A DNA stretch of 64,000 nt from Myxococcota bacterium (GTDB lineage Bacteria; Myxococcota_A; UBA9042; PHBI01; JAWLBL01): NCBI GenBank assembly GCA_041687695.1, contig JAWLBL010000008.1, forward strand, positions 203,818 through 267,817. Reading direction: 5' to 3'. Below are positions 38,875 to 46,211 of the stretch, piece after piece. The position numbers and the translations under genes were made by a program. Within the stretch, counting starts at the first letter, position 1. The number at the start of each line of letters is the position of its first letter. The notes beneath the pieces were generated by a model, which saw only the letters and a list, made by a program, of their open reading frames with translations, did no database searches and had not been told where the DNA came from.

Positions 38875-38878
<4 letters not shown>
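38102..38878 (-). CDS. Patatin-like phospholipase
   Basis: [11 protein letters not shown] glycine loop, GSSAG nucleophile, ASC..PG.F.P, YLDGG; GTGA coupling. Confidence 0.9.
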
Positions 38879-41235
<2,357 letters not shown>

Positions 41236-41287: not shown

Positions 41288-42202
41288 TCAGGTCGAGGCG
41301 GCCTCCGGGACCGCCTCGCGGGCGGCGCGGAAGGTGGCGAGATCGGCGACCGGGCGGCCGGGGCGCATCTTGCGCAGGCCGTAGGCGCGGCGGACGGCGG
41401 CGCGGGCGAGGACGCGCGTGGGGTCGACCAGACGGCGGCCCCAGATGGACGGCTCGGTGAGCGTCATCGCCAGCTCGGTGCAGCCGGAGACGACGACGTC
41501 GGCGCCCAGGGTCTCGATGAGGATCTTGGCGGCGTCCTCGAGGGCCTTTTTGTGCTGCGGCTTGGGCCCCAGCGCCTTGATGCCGGTCGCGCCGCGGCCG
41601 CCCCGGGCCTCGAGGCGGCCGTACAGGGGCTCCATGACGAGGTGCTCCTGCAGCGTCTCGCCGTTGACGAGGTCCTGCAGGCTGACCGGGCGCAGGCCGA
41701 AGGCCTCGAGGGCGTCGTGGTACAGGCGCGCCTCGAGCGTGCCGGTCGTGGCCAACAGACCCACCCGGGCGCCCTCGTGGTACTCGTGGATGAAGCGGGC
41801 GGTCTCCTCGACCATGTCGAGGATGGGGATGCTCGACGCCTCGCGCAGCCGCGGCAGGTAGTGATGGGCCGTGTTGCAGGCCAGGATGGCGAAGTCGGCG
41901 CCCGGGATCTCGTGCCCGCTGGCCGTCCGGCCGCCCTCGAGCCGCCGCAGGCTGCGCAGCAGCCACGGCATCGGGTCGGGCGCGCGCCCCTCCATCGCCA
42001 GCGTGCGGTCGGGCGTGGCCGGGATCGAGCTGAGCACCCACTCGGGGAAGTCCTGCTCGCTGGTGACGCCCACCAGGTCCCGCGCCGCCTCCAGCACCTT
42101 GCGCTCGACGTCCAGGTGGCTGAACGGCCCCATGCCGCCGACGATGCCGATGACCTGATGCTGCCGCGGCGGATACAGGGACGTGTCGCTTCGCTCGCTC
42201 AT
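41288..42202 (-). CDS. Aspartate/glutamate racemase family protein
   Basis: IGIVGGMGP, PDRT, ACNTAH, GLLATTGT, GCTEL (both catalytic Cys present). Confidence 0.9.
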   Translation of the reverse strand: MSERSDTSLYPPRQHQVIGIVGGMGPFSHLDVERKVLEAARDLVGVTSEQDFPEWVLSSIPATPDRTLAMEGRAPDPMPWLLRSLRRLEGGRTASGHEIPGADFAILACNTAHHYLPRLREASSIPILDMVEETARFIHEYHEGARVGLLATTGTLEARLYHDALEAFGLRPVSLQDLVNGETLQEHLVMEPLYGRLEARGGRGATGIKALGPKPQHKKALEDAAKILIETLGADVVVSGCTELAMTLTEPSIWGRRLVDPTRVLARAAVRRAYGLRKMRPGRPVADLATFRAAREAVPEAAST

Positions 42203-42464
42203 CGGGCTCCGGTCCCCCCGAAGGCCTCGGGGGCAAGGGCGTCACCGCCGCGTTCCGCGGGCCCCGACCCATTACCACACCGGGCCCGCGCACGAAAAAT
42301 GCAAATGCCCGTTCCCGCATAGAATTCCCCGTCGGGAGGGGAGGGGAGGGGGGCGGCGACGTCTCTGGAGTTCAGGGCCGGTGGTGGTCGCCGGGACGGA
42401 AGGAGAGTAGGTGGTTCGGTAGCCACCGGGGGGCGCAGTCGAAGGCCAATGGTGCTGGTCGGGA

Positions 42465-42553
42465 GGGGCGTCCGGGCCGCTTCGCGTCCCGCCGCTCGGC
42501 CACGGCGCCTGGGGCTGGGATGGTCGGGGCGCTGAGCTTGGGTGGCGTGATAG
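42465..42553 (-). repeat. Left copy of an ~89-bp inverted repeat
   Basis: Reverse complement aligns to 44522-44610; the ~60-bp core differs by 2 substitutions and 1 indel. Confidence 0.9.
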
Positions 42554-42704
42554 CTCGTGCCTATGAAACGGCTGCATGTCGGCCGTCCCGGGACGGTGGC
42601 CACGTCCGCGGCCGACGGGCCGCTTTCGGAGGGTGCGGCCCACGGCCGCACTTTCCGGCCTGGCCCCGCCCAGGCCGGGGCGGCTGAGAGCATGCGCGAG
42701 TCAC

Positions 42705-42850
42705 CCGCCCCGGGGCGGAGAACCCGTCGTCCCGGCACGGTCGACGGATCATGGCGCCTCGGTGCCCTGACTTCCGCCCCGGGGCGGAAGGTCGTCGTGC
42801 CGGGGCGGAAGGTCGTGGCGCCGGGGCGGAAGGCCGTCGTCCCGGGACGA
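42705..42850 (-). repeat. Short array of CTTCCGCCCCGG-based ~21-bp units, including a perfect 20-bp palindrome at 42771-42790
   Basis: cttccgccccggggcggaag is self-complementary; ccggggcggaagg recurs three times at 21-bp spacing; a further ccgccccggggcgg lies at 42705. Confidence 0.85.
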
Positions 42851-43930
42851 CGCCTCGGCGATCTTGCGGGCGACGAAGCCGGCCCCCAGCTCCTGGCGGG
42901 CGATGAGCAGGTTGTGGGCCTGGCACAGGACCCGGACGTTGTCGACGCTGTGCTCGCCGCCCCGGGCGAAGGCCTCGTCGTGGTGAAGCTGTAGCCGCCG
43001 CGTCTCCCTGCAACGTCCGCCCGGGCCCTCGAAGGTGCAGCGCAGGCCGTCCCGTTCGACCACGGCGCGCTTGACCTCGACCGGAATGGCGCGACTCCGG
43101 TCCGTCGGGGCCCCGGGTTGCTCGGCGGTCTCGGCCTCGGTCTCCGCAGGCGGCGCCGTCACCGGCGTCTTCTTCGCCCGCGGCTTCGCGCCCACCCCGA
43201 AGCGCTGCTTCTTCCTCGCCGCCAGCAAGCTGTCCAGGGCCATCTCCAACAGCGTCTCGTAGTCGCCCGAGGCGACCTGATGGCCGACCAGCGCCATGGC
43301 CTCCTCCAGCTTGGCCGCCACGCGCGCGCCGACGGTGACCTGGACCTTGAACCGCGCCTCCGACAGCGGTTCGACGACCCGTTTCGGCCTGGGCGCCTCG
43401 AGCTTCAGCCCGCCGCCCACAGGCTCCCCCGCCGGCCTCTCGCGCTCGGCCCGCTTGGGGGCGCCGGCGCTCCGCCCCGCCGGCGCCGGCAGCCGAACGA
43501 CCCGCGCCGGCACGTCCGGCCGCGGCGCCCACTTCGCCACCAGCTCGGCCAGCTCGCGCTTGCTCTTCCCGGCCGCCTCGGCCAGCCGCTCCCTCACGTT
43601 CCCTTCACCCAAGTGCGGCCCTATGACCCGCATACCGCTCAGGCTCAGTCGCCCGTCGGCCAGCATCCCCCCCATCTCGGGCCACCGCCGCACCCACTCG
43701 ACGGCCTTGACGTAGTTGTAGGCCTTGTCCTCCCCAAAGCCCCACCGCGTCCGGCACCAGTCGAACAGCGATGGGCTGCCGTCGCGCAGATGAAGCTCCC
43801 TGGCCTCGACCTCGGCCAGATGGACGACCAGGTTGGCCGTCGTCCGCCGCTCCAGATCAACCAGCTCGCCGACCCGCCCCAGCAGCCTCTCGTCGGACAG
43901 ATTCTCCAGCATCTTCAGTCCCTTGCTCAT
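42749..43930 (-). CDS. HNH endonuclease with a DUF222-like N-terminal region
   Basis: C-terminal SRAIP..VKRAVVERDG.RCTF..RC..LQLHH..GGEHSVDNVRVLCQAHN; N-terminal LVVHLAEVEARELHL..SLFDWC; GGGAGG RBS. Confidence 0.88.
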   Translation of the reverse strand: MSKGLKMLENLSDERLLGRVGELVDLERRTTANLVVHLAEVEARELHLRDGSPSLFDWCRTRWGFGEDKAYNYVKAVEWVRRWPEMGGMLADGRLSLSGMRVIGPHLGEGNVRERLAEAAGKSKRELAELVAKWAPRPDVPARVVRLPAPAGRSAGAPKRAERERPAGEPVGGGLKLEAPRPKRVVEPLSEARFKVQVTVGARVAAKLEEAMALVGHQVASGDYETLLEMALDSLLAARKKQRFGVGAKPRAKKTPVTAPPAETEAETAEQPGAPTDRSRAIPVEVKRAVVERDGLRCTFEGPGGRCRETRRLQLHHDEAFARGGEHSVDNVRVLCQAHNLLIARQELGAGFVARKIAEASSRDDGLPPRRHDLPPRHDDLPPRGGSQGTEAP

Positions 43931-43957
43931 CCCGCAGCCCTCCCATCGAGTGACGGC

Positions 43958-43966
43958 AGCATAGCA
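43958..43966 (-). promoter_or_regulatory. Possible extended -10 element (TGcTATGCT) for the HNH gene
   Basis: Minus strand reads TGTGCTATGCT about 28 nt upstream of the ATG at 43930. Confidence 0.4.
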
Positions 43967-44185
43967 CAGGGGGGTCGGCCCCCTCGGAACACCCCCTGGA
44001 CGGCCGTTCAGGCCTTCCAGACGACTCGCGACGACCCAGGACCCTGATCAGGGCGCTGTAGAGCCTGCCAGGGGCCCTCCTGACCTTCCCCGATGTCGAC
44101 CCCGGATCGGCCGATCTCGGGCCACGAAAACCTGTCAACAACTATTTCGCCCCTCGCCCCCTCCCGATGTCGTTTTCTTGTCCGG

Positions 44186-44493
44186 CTTCCGCCCCGGGGC
44201 GGGTCACCGACTTCCGCCCCGGGGCGGGTCACCGACGTCCGCTTCGGCGCGACGGCCTTCCGCACCGGGCCAAGCAACTGGCTTCCGCCCCGGGGCGGGC
44301 CACCGACTTCCGCCCCGGCGCGACGACCTTCCGCACCGGGCCAAGCAACTGGCTTCCGCCCCGGGGCGGGCCACCGACTTCCGCCCCGGGACGGGCGACT
44401 GGCTTCCGTCCGGGACGGGCGACCGACCTCCGCACCGGGCCAAGCAACTGGCTTCCGCCCCGGGGCGGGTCACCGACTTCCGCCCCGGGCGGG
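44186..44493 (+). repeat. Tandem array of 13 units (21-25 bp, last one partial) starting CTTCCGC(C/A)CCGG
   Basis: Unit types cttccgccccggggcgggYcaccga (5x), cYtccgcaccgggccaagcaactgg (3x), 21-bp ...cggcgcgacg type (2x), plus variants. Confidence 0.92.
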
Positions 44494-44521
44494 CTCCGCC
44501 CAAGTCGATGATAATGTCAGA

Positions 44522-44610
44522 CTATCACCACCCCGGGTCCAGCGTCCCCACCATCCCAGCCCCAGGCGCCAGTGCCCGAGCGGCGGGACGCGCAGCGGCC
44601 CGGACGCCCC
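44522..44610 (+). repeat. Right copy of an ~89-bp inverted repeat
   Basis: accatcccagccccaggcgcc..ccgagcggcgggacgcg.agcggcccggacgcccc matches the reverse complement of 42465-42553. Confidence 0.9.
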
Positions 44611-44772
44611 CACGGGGGCTGCGCCCCCGCGCCCCGCTTTGAGAGCCCCCCAGCCGCAGCGTAGGCCGGGGTCAAGGGCTTTCTCGTCCGCGAGGAATTG
44701 GCCCGCCCGTCAGGGCGGGCCAGGGGGAGAAAGCCCTTGAGGCCGGCCGAAGCGGAGGCTACCAGCGTCGGG

Positions 44773-44917
44773 CCCCCCTTGCCCCCCACCCCCCCTTGCC
44801 CCCCACCTCCCCTTGCCCCCCACCCCCCTTCACCCCCACCCCTTGACTCCCCCCACCTCCCCTTGACTCCCCACCCCCCTTGTCCCCCACCCCTTGACGC
44901 CCCCACCACCCCCAGCC
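44773..44917. repeat. C-rich degenerate repeat (CCCCTTG..CCCCCA)n, G-quadruplex-prone on the minus strand
   Basis: Many runs of 4-7 C separated by ttg, a or t. Confidence 0.75.
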
Positions 44918-44930
44918 TAAGCCCCTCCAC

Positions 44931-46211
44931 ATGCACCCCGACCGCGTCTCCACCGTCCTCGCCGCCGCGCTGCACCAGGACCTCCTCACCGACACCCAGC
45001 CGCTCGCGCTCTTCTTCGACCTGGACGCCTACCGCGAGCGCTTGAAGTCGCTCACCGCCGCCTTCCCGGCCGGCACGCTGCACGCGGTCGCGGTCAAGGC
45101 CAACCCGCTCGCCGCCACGCTGCGCGAGGCCAACGCGCGGGGACTGGGCGCCGAGGTCGCGTCGCTGGCCGAGCTGGAGCACGCGATCCGCCTGGGCTTC
45201 CCACCCCACCGGGTCGTCTTCGACTCGCCCGCCAAGACGGCGCCCGAGATCGCCCGCGCGCTGCAGCTCGGCGTCCACCTCAACGCCGACAACCTGCACG
45301 AGCTGGCCCGCATCGCCGCCCTGGTCGAGACCGGCCGCTTCCCCGCGCCCTCGGTCGGCGTCCGGGTGAACCCGCAGGTCGGCGCCGGGGCCATCGAGGC
45401 GACCAGCACCGCCACCGCCACCAGCAAGTTCGGCGTCGCGCTGGCCGACGAGGGCGACGCGCTGCTCGAGGCGCTGCGCCGCTGGCCCTGGGTGCGCGGC
45501 CTGCACGTCCACACTGGCTCGCAGGGCGGCTCGCTCGACCTGATGGTCCGCGGCGTGCAGGCCGCCGTCGCCTTCGCCGACGCCGTGGACGCGCTGCCGG
45601 GCCGCCCGCCGCTGGCGGTCCTCGACGTCGGCGGCGGCGTCTCGGTCGACTACGCCGCCGACGCCCCCGACGACGCCTTCGCCACCTGGGCCGCCGCCCT
45701 CCAGGCCGCGGTCCCCGGCCTGGGCCGCTTCCAGCTGGTCACCGAGGTCGGCCGCGCCCTGTCCGCCAAGGCCGGCTGGGTCGCCAGCCGCGTCGAGGCC
45801 ACCAAGCGCGCCGGCGGCCGCCCCATCGCGGTCATCCACGCGGGCGCCGACCTCTTCGTCCGCACCGCCTACCAGCCCGACCGCTGGCCCCACCGCGTCA
45901 CCGTCCACCACCCCGACGGGCGCCCCAAGGACTTGCCCAAATCGCTCGAACCCTGGGACGTCGCCGGCCCGCTGTGCTTCTCCGGCGACCTCGTCGCCCG
46001 CGCCCGCCCGCTGCCGCCCATCGCGCCGGGCGACCTGCTCGTCGTCCACGACGCCGGCGCCTACACCCTGGCCATGTGGTCGCGCTACAACAGCCGCCAG
46101 GCCCCGGCCGTCTGGGGCCACGAGGACGTCGCGCCCGACGCGCCCCCCCGGCTGACCCTGCTCAAGCCCGCCGAGACCGTCGAGGACGTCCTGCGATTCT
46201 GGGGATCCTGA
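44931..46211 (+). CDS. PLP-dependent Orn/DAP/Arg decarboxylase family protein (LysA-like)
   Basis: AVKANP, EVAS..E, SKFGV, HVHTGSQ, DVGGG, EVGR, AGPLCFSGD, DAGAY. Confidence 0.9.
   Translation: MHPDRVSTVLAAALHQDLLTDTQPLALFFDLDAYRERLKSLTAAFPAGTLHAVAVKANPLAATLREANARGLGAEVASLAELEHAIRLGFPPHRVVFDSPAKTAPEIARALQLGVHLNADNLHELARIAALVETGRFPAPSVGVRVNPQVGAGAIEATSTATATSKFGVALADEGDALLEALRRWPWVRGLHVHTGSQGGSLDLMVRGVQAAVAFADAVDALPGRPPLAVLDVGGGVSVDYAADAPDDAFATWAAALQAAVPGLGRFQLVTEVGRALSAKAGWVASRVEATKRAGGRPIAVIHAGADLFVRTAYQPDRWPHRVTVHHPDGRPKDLPKSLEPWDVAGPLCFSGDLVARARPLPPIAPGDLLVVHDAGAYTLAMWSRYNSRQAPAVWGHEDVAPDAPPRLTLLKPAETVEDVLRFWGS

Follow-up and report, generated by a model that had tools for sequence, protein, structure and literature searches.

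A multicopy HNH nuclease gene framed by palindromes: a putative selfish element in a Myxococcota bacterium

The window analyzed here is a 64,000-nucleotide stretch of contig JAWLBL010000008.1 from a Myxococcota bacterium. Two of its genes, which encode an Asp/Glu racemase and a PLP decarboxylase, are separated by 2.73 kb that harbor an HNH nuclease gene between layers of repeats, and no transposase ORF is found in the element. This raises the question of whether the HNH gene itself drives a mobile or selfish element. Multicopy DUF222/HNH genes are widespread; those of the mycobacterial 13E12 type are damage-induced and lie at inversion breakpoints, and the accessible text of the papers on them gives no mechanism for their spread (PMC3381160, PMC13157036, PMC10589994).

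The HNH gene and the parts of its locus

The 393-aa ORF (42749-43930, minus strand) has a codon-position GC of 0.76/0.51/0.91, which is shared by the flanking genes, and its HH...N...CxxHN motif is intact. Ten further overlapping ORFs tested in the interval lack such a pattern or are a shifted frame or antisense shadow of the HNH gene, so that its preliminary description as the only credible gene holds. The protein is predicted to consist of a ParB/Noc-like helix-turn-helix domain (residues ~26-138) with its recognition helix at ~66-77, a linker, a ribbon-helix-helix-like region (~186-250), and a zinc HNH domain (~277-348). Pfam recognizes only the HNH part, and PF02720 (DUF222) gives no match to the window protein at E ≤ 1; 8 of 94 homologs match it weakly (best 3e-4), and other genes of this genome exceed its curated cut-off. 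The family is homologous to DUF222 proteins, its profile matching true DUF222 genes at 1e-21 to 1e-24.

The conserved core of the element is a CCGG-centred palindrome of 16-20 bp, termed P. In at least four phyla it is found on either side of the gene and, in many cases, within it as well. The locus is composed as follows (window coordinates):

41288-42202, minus: Asp/Glu racemase gene, neighbor of the HNH locus
42334-42353, no strand: short G tract, left boundary
42465-42553, plus: module B in inverted form, making up the left arm of the outer inverted repeat
42586-42682, no strand: passenger, derived from a dispersed repeat of another kind (32 matches in the genome, the contig of a Y1 transposase gene included), ruled out as part of the element
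42702-42853, plus: 3′ P-unit array, oriented opposite to its 5′ counterpart; it overlaps the ORF end
42749-43930, minus: HNH gene, 393 aa, with predicted domains
43347-43486, minus: probable gene-conversion tract with paralog subfamily 2 as donor; the gene is a mosaic from nt 445 onward
43931-44185, minus: leader D, kept in 21 paralogs
43996-44011, minus: predicted LexA (SOS) box CTGAACGGCCGTCCAG, 81 nt upstream of the start codon
44186-44496, minus: 5′ array, made up of palindromic P units of the CTTCCGCCCCGGGGCGG type together with hybrids
44505-44643, minus: module B, a second hairpin plus spacer that holds the right arm (44522-44610) of the outer inverted repeat
44644-44763, minus: module A, a 120-nt hairpin with a GGTAG start, which occurs in 43 copies in this genome and is the constant 5′ end of the element there
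44773-44915, no strand: C-rich tract of 17-bp tandem units beyond module A; on the element strand it is G-rich
44931-46211, plus: PLP decarboxylase gene, neighbor of the HNH locus

The inner arrays in opposite orientations and the outer inverted repeats of ~89 bp, both noted previously, are present as listed. The outer arms are 88% identical over 91 bp, and each array unit is either the palindrome itself or a hybrid of two palindrome arms. The G/C tracts reported for both far ends are confirmed at the right (~145 bp of 17-bp tandem units) but shrink to ~20 bp at the left; a G-rich tract on the element strand accompanies 17 of 42 A ends. Module A (fold z = -6.4), the most conserved part and one that the earlier description overlooked, is found in the window copy at the right end only, with none beyond the left module B. 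The window copy is therefore asymmetric, and the symmetric end structure once ascribed to it is withdrawn. In leader D, the TTGAC hexamer near 44133-44138 is conserved, and a TATGCT that resembles a -10 element lies near 43958-43967. The conversion tract begins at the position that an in-gene palindrome takes in subfamily-1 copies and that lacks the palindrome in the window copy.

Copies in this genome and in other lineages

The window gene and its 21 paralogs constitute 22 family copies at unrelated genomic sites, all with intact HNH residues. The paralogs are under purifying selection, with a median dN/dS of 0.22 across 210 pairs. The closest pair has a dS of 0.13, and seven NCBI proteins, which look like orthologs from a second assembly, each match a different paralog at 89.5-99%; the copies therefore appear old and mostly vertically inherited.

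Whether the paralogs share flanks and whether the array unit is scattered without HNH enrichment had been posed as checks: the flanks are shared, and the scatter that would have counted against an element did not appear. Module A forms the 5′ end in 19/19 copies with sufficient upstream sequence and is followed by the second hairpin and a palindrome array. The end modules recur inverted at the 3′ end in 7/21 copies, the window copy not being among these, and gene-less units of the form A-B-array-B′-A′ exist as well. Within 1.5 kb of an HNH paralog, a zone that makes up 1.07% of the genome, lie 125 of the 151 TTCCGCCCCGG sites; 17 more belong to gene-less end copies (142/151 in elements overall) and nine lie elsewhere. 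The arrays reach 32 units. A CRISPR- or TIGR-like guide array was ruled out, as variable spacers are absent and the CRISPR-DR9 match scores 21 bits versus 45. P units follow 37 of 38 assessable copies of module A, which is 91% identical between subfamilies (ORF, 65%), shows compensatory changes in its hairpin, and occurs in partial tandem repeats of its end. Target duplications, which had also been asked for, were not seen: flanks of 30 nt around 10 inverted A pairs show no direct repeat. In 3/10 pairs of element ends the own partner ranked first, which leaves a mixed picture of concerted evolution of the two ends.

A relative (G011, 35-40% identity) takes on the same layout with an end module of unrelated sequence, which is found 5′ in 9/9 copies and inverted 3′ in 8/9. 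Its nine HNH genes are adjoined by 27 of its 31 exact P sites, and its leaders contain no LexA-type box of the kind listed above. Long inverted ends are lineage-specific and are present in two genomes. None occurs at 55 loci of other lineages, where any inverted match is confined to seven loci and to ≤32 bp; this rules out long terminal inverted repeats as a defining feature, and the nested repeats that had been taken to define the element are reduced to an attribute of 7/21 copies here. Module A was not found among 106 other genomes of the class, except for two matches of 31-42 bp in G011, and most lineages carry P without any long hairpin end. Copy number among relatives ranges from 0 to ~30. 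No relatives were found in the phage collection at E ≤ 1e-8, and 10/94 homologs carry a RuvA C-terminal domain.

Searches for an empty site covered the JGI metagenomes with the decarboxylase as query (no match), and relatives with flanks from G173, G174, two Armatimonadota-like sets, and Vicinamibacterales (none found). In the flank comparisons, identity was 66-78% in a different gene order, or the matches fell on multicopy kinase/permease genes; the paralog alignment retrieved three distant loci alone from the JGI metagenomes. No empty site emerged, and HNH-driven movement is therefore something that we infer; the available relatives are too distant.

The palindrome, its predicted reader, and the predicted SOS box

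P lies within the ORF in 19/22 copies, and its arms differ between the two subfamilies of the genome. In subfamily 1 (helix GEDKAYNYVKAV), 179/183 units have a GGCGG arm; in subfamily 2 (helix SEDQAWTYTKVV), 51/58 have exclusively GACG arms. The arms track the protein clade, including within one genome. On a tree of 79 proteins the P type changes 10 times (minimum possible, 6); one type spans three phyla, and two types occur side by side in single genomes. Since kin share both P and protein, the tree speaks for co-inheritance and leaves co-evolution unproven. Similarity between copies stops at P, with half-sites at three loci. In other genomes, 65.9 kb of flank contain 59 CYRG-centred 16-bp palindromes, versus 6 in 269 kb of distant DNA, and a P profile trained on the same loci finds a site at 46/88 and on both sides at 16. 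Most sites stand alone in G173, where 4 of the first 50 listed P sites adjoin a gene, and in G175, which has 21 P sites and one gene.

A resemblance to the DNA-binding domain of ParB/Noc is predicted for the N-terminal domain, albeit at a subthreshold Z score. In structure searches with its model, the top four hits were all ParB-family DNA-binding domains with both aligners (VIA and Foldseek). The VIA hits, KorB (Z 6.9, rmsd 3.7 Å over 97 residues), ParB (6.6), KorB (6.4), and Spo0J (5.7), are below significance; the Foldseek hits are Noc/ParB at TM 0.47-0.54 and E 1.6-2.6, and neither model has a Foldseek match at E ≤ 0.001. In the accessible text on ParB-parS, Noc-NBS, and KorB-operator pairs, a few helix-near residues set specificity for a 16-bp palindrome, which parallels the helix-turn-helix predicted here (PMC7383237, bioRxiv 2022.02.28.481274); the palindrome bound by Noc also has the CCCGGG centre of P (bioRxiv 2022.02.28.481274). 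Unlike these proteins, to which its fold similarity is below threshold, the window protein has no CTPase domain and is fused to a ribbon-helix-helix-like region and HNH, and its sites travel with the gene. P is predicted to be the recognition site of the HNH protein. The iterated binding sites previously proposed for the ends gain support from the co-variation of helix and palindrome and from the predicted fold; the idea that the long inverted repeats define the element is not supported.

A LexA-like box, judged against that of M. xanthus (PMC9705874), is present in 21/21 leaders, and the same motif lies upstream of dnaE2. The HNH gene is a candidate for SOS control via LexA.

Proposed spread and alternatives

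Twenty-two copies are framed by a palindrome that varies with the predicted DNA-reading helix, and a damage-induced selfish element that cuts its own repeat is therefore likely. The balance tips slightly toward a selfish cassette (P, leader, HNH gene, P) that is SOS-induced, binds P, and spreads via nick-triggered host recombination. We infer the following course. DNA damage would likely lift LexA repression of the HNH gene, the protein would bind P as a dimer through its predicted ParB/Noc-like helix-turn-helix domain, and the HNH domain would nick DNA at or near P. Host recombination may then copy, convert, or delete the cassette, which would seed further P repeats. In this lineage the core would have acquired P arrays and, at its ends, the long hairpins A and B, and the gene-less units may be a non-autonomous form or a deletion product. 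An HNH nick leaves no covalent intermediate, and the selfish-element model gives no account of how new sites without homology are colonized. HNH homing endonucleases, which act by nick-induced gene conversion and cut the element-free allele, likewise combine a site-reading domain with an HNH nuclease and share the proposed spread by host recombination. The difference is that the proposed site is kept here at both ends and in the gene, and that the copies are dispersed rather than allelic.

The genes could instead be old, domesticated SOS-response nucleases that arose by ordinary duplication, with P as autoregulatory operator and the hairpins and arrays as passive clutter. Purifying selection, the ortholog-like proteins, and the LexA-like box fit this reading, as do KorB, the top fold match, which is a repressor, and the mycobacterial 13E12 genes, described as LexA-bound and damage-induced in the accessible text of PMC3381160. 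It is nonetheless unlikely, as an operator does not account for copies that end abruptly at P on either side, for P 3′ of the gene, for the long arrays, for the gene-less end-to-end elements, or for the copy numbers among relatives.

The hairpin ends invite two other readings. Module A could be a REP doublet of the GTAG type (REPIN) that a host RAYT mobilizes in trans, with the HNH cassette as cargo between two of them, a rather improbable view that draws on the GGTAG start, the compensated long hairpin, the missing target duplication, the partial tandem repeats, further RAYT-type repeats clustered close by, and 11 Y1_Tnp matches in the genome. Yet no Y1 gene adjoins A or P, although five lie at contig ends; flanking repeats, where present, differ. 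A does not travel alone but with P units, P lacks a long hairpin in most lineages, and the G011 end module shows no GTAG head at its start. Alternatively, module A or the leader could be a structured ncRNA that guides the nuclease in an OMEGA-like manner. This is very improbable despite the conservation and covariation of A and a weak IscB profile match: NF040563 reaches 21.9 bits, where the cut-off is 175, and aligns with nothing but the HNH part; no RuvC is seen. There is no Rfam match near the gathering score, the Watson-Crick stems fold on either strand, the arrays lack variable spacers, and A is missing from other lineages and also occurs in inverted form at 3′ ends.

Neither the DDE gene nor the target duplication of an insertion sequence was seen, and the proposed selfish HNH cassette is best read as a RAYT/REP analog with different chemistry. 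In the accessible text on RAYT/REP systems, inverted palindromic units likewise lie on both sides of a nuclease gene, the sequence of the repeat parallels the protein tree, repeats also occur solo and clustered elsewhere, and target duplication is absent; module A shares the GTAG head (PMC2817692; PMC3733652). As in a REPtron, the repeat follows the enzyme phylogeny and occurs away from the gene too. Inverted flanks with a GT(A/G)G head are limited to A at both ends in the 7/21 copies. The differences lie in the nuclease, an HNH protein with a predicted double-strand, ParB-like reader instead of an HUH/Y1 transposase (PF01797 is absent between the repeats, its matches lying elsewhere); in the conserved unit, a tag-less perfect palindrome also within the ORF; and in the gene, itself multicopy with a predicted SOS box.

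REP13E12/DUF222-HNH genes of mycobacteria are also dispersed and multicopy, with recombination between copies, and they are under the LexA-type regulation that is predicted here; their accessible descriptions mention neither a cognate palindrome nor hairpin ends nor gene-less derivatives (PMC3381160, PMC13157036, PMC10589994). The family matches them as a dispersed multicopy gene with a C-terminal HNH and homology to DUF222 proteins. Searches of accessible full text returned no paper that connects HNH/DUF222 genes with a REP family or a cognate palindrome; the repeat tables of PMC3733652 could list some of the repeats described here. A wider reading, offered tentatively and at less than even confidence, is that DUF222-like HNH genes, mycobacterial 13E12 included, form an SOS-triggered mobile class in which a ParB-derived reader and HNH read a 16-20-bp palindrome, move without transposase or recombinase, and make REP-like repeats. 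If so, palindromic repeat families would not stem from RAYTs alone; bacteria would have a second way of making such repeats, with unrelated chemistry, and the genes would form a natural library of many compact, reprogrammed site-specific nucleases. The cognate palindrome, the candidate reading helix, and the matched natural variants provide a testable lead for the spread of DUF222/HNH genes, and two helix/palindrome pairs in one genome make a swap test straightforward. True DUF222 genes of this order have their own TTCCGCGGAA-centred palindrome at 8/17 loci.

Ends and copies of the HNH element

The locus of the window copy contains the following features:

42749–43930, HNH ORF of 393 aa, the sole credible gene between the racemase and decarboxylase genes
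44644–44763, module A, a 120-nt hairpin that starts with GGTAG on the gene strand (fold z −6.4)
42586–42682, segment of another dispersed repeat, not part of the element

The preliminary description had claimed a single credible HNH gene in this interval, inverted arrays and an outer inverted repeat, all of which are confirmed (the repeat spans 91 bp and is 88% identical). It had overlooked module A, the most conserved piece of the element. Module A is absent from the left end, which makes the window copy asymmetric, so that the symmetric end structure also proposed there is not borne out. Elsewhere in the window, a 786-aa ORF on the minus strand (38875–41235) fuses HMG-CoA reductase with polyprenyl synthetase.

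The genome (7.97 Mb, 73% GC) harbors 22 HNH paralogs that are 56–73% identical to the window copy. All of them keep the HNH and zinc residues and an open reading frame, one being without its first 71 residues. Over 210 pairs, the median dN/dS is 0.22; the lowest dS is 0.13. The element is ordered as module A, a second hairpin (module B), an array of palindromes (P), a 250-bp leader, the ORF, and an inverted array. Module A lies 5′ of 19/19 assessable paralogs (three at contig ends are left out of this count) and recurs inverted at the 3′ side in 7/21 copies. Between subfamilies 1 and 2, two protein clades of which the first includes the window protein, module A is 91% identical compared with 65% for the first 405 coding bases (52 pairs). 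Array units follow 37 of the 38 assessable copies of module A, of which the genome holds 43. Gene-less A-B-array-B′-A′ elements, where the prime denotes an inverted copy, are located on contigs C3, C7, and C27 and contain no remnant of leader or ORF.

The array-unit sequence TTCCGCCCCGG occurs 151 times in the genome. Enrichment near HNH genes is evident: 125 sites fall in the 1.07% of the genome that is no more than 1.5 kb from a paralog, another 17 belong to gene-less elements, and 9 are elsewhere. The unenriched scatter that would have spoken against the preliminary description did not occur, since the sites cluster at paralogs and gene-less elements. Ten pairs of inverted module A copies show no target duplication. 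At 17/42 ends, G makes up at least 55% of the outermost 80 nt, a level reached by 1.1% of random 80-mers. Tandem partial copies of the GGTAG end are found directly outside module A (C2:186863, C3:293017–293117, C9:2194–2260, C13:387–450, C33:12341–12448) and look as if replication restarted repeatedly at this end.

Palindrome P across lineages and protein clades

In the relative G011, nine homologs (35–40% identity) carry a multi-hairpin end of ~260 bp that is unrelated in sequence, 5′ in 9/9 and inverted 3′ in 8/9. Of the exact sites of its palindrome CAGTCCCCGGGGACTG, 27/31 adjoin these nine genes. Among 55 loci that could be assessed, drawn from Acidobacteriota, Armatimonadota, Eisenbacteria, Myxococcota, and Elusimicrobia, none has a long inverted end. 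An unbiased hairpin scan peaks at 0.15 per 100 bp in the interval 200–300 bp upstream of the gene and at 0.24 per 100 bp directly downstream of it (≤0.05 at >500 bp from the gene), and both peaks represent one site type, P (e.g., AACTCGTTCCGGAACGAGTT). Perfect 16-bp palindromes with a CYRG centre, which was fixed post hoc after the scan, number 59 in 65.9 kb of flank, whereas 269 kb of distant DNA contain 6. A profile trained on sites from the hairpin-scan loci detects P on at least one side at 46/88 loci and on both at 16/88, so about half of the loci are without P of the profiled type. Copies at separate sites resemble each other only as far as P's outer edge, and three loci begin inside P.

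Exact P sites adjoin HNH genes or fragments in 9/11 cases in G174, G176, and G177. Those of G173 (72 sites, about 30 genes) and G175 (21 sites, one gene) mostly stand alone, and several among 20 examined form doublets resembling REP clusters. At three loci of the acidobacterium G173 (L156, L157, L160), the ends are direct repeats in which a conserved tail with GGTAG comes after a P half-site. A search limited to four centres yielded CCGG 78, CTGG 17, CCAG 7, and CTAG 1 among 103 sites of other genomes, which is compatible with the inner C having changed to T. At positions 9–10, variant bases are mirrored above chance, suggesting hairpin formation or template switching. The orthologous loci L092, L095, and L105 of three genomes have ~1 kb of tandemly duplicated flank and a 150–165-bp direct repeat immediately outside both P sites. 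In Vicinamibacterales (L122:2016–2269, L260, L261, L264), one subfamily accompanies or adjoins the 5′ end of a multicopy gene, presumably a Ser/Thr kinase by its motif.

In subfamily 1 (15 copies), 179/183 array units have a GGCGG arm. In subfamily 2 (7 copies), whose predicted recognition helix differs, both arms are GACG in 51/58 units. This difference within one genome shows that P is not a host-wide site. P also lies within the ORF linker in 19/22 copies of this genome and, as yet another variant, in most of 20 examined G173 genes. A quick tree was built from 79 proteins (of 95 rows, those without perfect P and P types represented by fewer than three rows being left out); on it, the seven P types require 10 changes, the minimum being 6. 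Because kin share labels, the tree shows co-inheritance of P and protein only. One P type spans three phyla, and two types occur together in single genomes.

True DUF222 genes of this order are homologous to the window family (1e-21 to 1e-24) and have a different, TTCCGCGGAA-centred palindrome at 8/17 loci. A DUF222-HNH gene on one Rhodococcus plasmid comes with a 16-bp palindrome centred on CCGCGG and with an SOS-like box upstream; nothing of the kind was seen at an Arthrobacter locus. Two further HNH families of the window's genome, true DUF222 and a tandem-domain relative, both have LexA-type boxes; the DUF222 pair bears a TTCCGCGGAA-centred palindrome of its own, in the linker as well as upstream. 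The genes of these families are located at:

C12:173214–174764
C40:19348–20727
C22:2404–4326
C16:54622–56280

Protein fold and regulation

The AlphaFold2 model of the window protein (mean pLDDT 84) resembles HNH nucleases at residues 277–348 (Z 7–7.8) and weakly matches a ribbon-helix-helix plasmid ParB at residues 195–252 (Z 5.1, rmsd 7.4). A RuvA C-terminal domain ends 10/94 homologs, including P0034, P0038, P0041, P0048, and P0051, and hints at RuvB recruitment to junctions. In RuvA, this domain touches RuvB, the branch-migration motor. Folded alone, the N-terminal domain reaches pLDDT 95. Its top four structure matches are KorB, ParB, KorB, and Spo0J (Z 6.9–5.7; best rmsd 3.7 Å over 97 residues) and its top four Foldseek matches are Noc and ParB (TM 0.47–0.54, E > 1), scores that lie inside the range reached by chance among helical domains. 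A ParB/Noc-like fold is suggested in that two aligners agree and the 16-bp palindrome fits. The Noc site TATTTCCCGGGAAATA shares its centre with P of this genome (bioRxiv 2022.02.28.481274), and specificity in the ParB/Noc family is switched by four residues (PMC7383237).

All 21/21 leaders contain CTGAACGGCCGTCCAG or a close variant 81–84 nt upstream of the start codon, a box that resembles the Myxococcus xanthus SOS box (PMC9705874). With up to one mismatch, CTGAAC-N4-GTTCAG occurs 30 times in the genome, 20 of them in HNH leaders. It is also found upstream of three DUF222-like genes and, as a perfect copy, 13 bp upstream of dnaE2 (which passes the NF004225 cut-off); half-sites lie on either side of the lexA promoter. 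In mycobacteria, LexA binds the 13E12 genes (PMC3381160), and these recombine, yielding inversions (PMC13157036). In the window ORF, 9/11 diagnostic sites at nt 445–584 are of subfamily-2 type versus 2/50 upstream. The switch coincides with the usual place of the subfamily-1 in-gene palindrome, which the window copy lacks. A mosaic gene is only suggested, because the linker alignment is gappy.

Candidate mechanism and related systems

Slightly favoured is a selfish cassette, for which we infer binding, nicking, and spread. The HNH protein would be induced by DNA damage, bind P as a dimer, and nick at or near it, after which the cassette would be copied, converted, or deleted by host recombination and replication. 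If P sites upstream and downstream of the gene recombined, exactly leader and ORF would be lost, leaving gene-less units. Nicking at P with host recombination would explain why copies end at P, as well as the arrays, the units without a gene, P sites that stand alone, and the apparent mosaicism of the window ORF. Against this reading, no empty site was found in the relatives compared, and colonisation of new sites is left unexplained. The copies also look old, judging from seven NCBI proteins that, compared as proteins, each match a different paralog at 89.5–99%.

A domesticated SOS nuclease with P as its operator is unlikely. That the cassette is cargo moved by a RAYT, a Y1 transposase acting on REP repeats, is quite improbable, and the 11 Y1 matches in the genome have neither module A nor P alongside. 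RNA guidance of the HNH nuclease seems very remote.

The RAYT/REP pair (PMC2817692) works similarly to the selfish cassette; membership is ruled out by the enzyme. DUF222/13E12 is a sister group, and the window protein falls outside PF02720. An insertion sequence with target duplications and identity with IscB were rejected. The full-text literature search returned no description linking HNH/DUF222 genes to a cognate palindrome, and HNH goes unmentioned in the main text of PMC3733652. The element may, with some doubt, represent a new class. The genome has no fewer than four RAYT-like genes (on C15, C22, C26, and C54), each with distinct tandem repeats of its own; copies of these repeats frequently abut HNH elements. 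A second match to recA falls into two pieces ~35 kb apart (C19:107865–108425 and C19:143717–143947, profile positions 3–189 and 185–261), which suggests a large insertion in recA.
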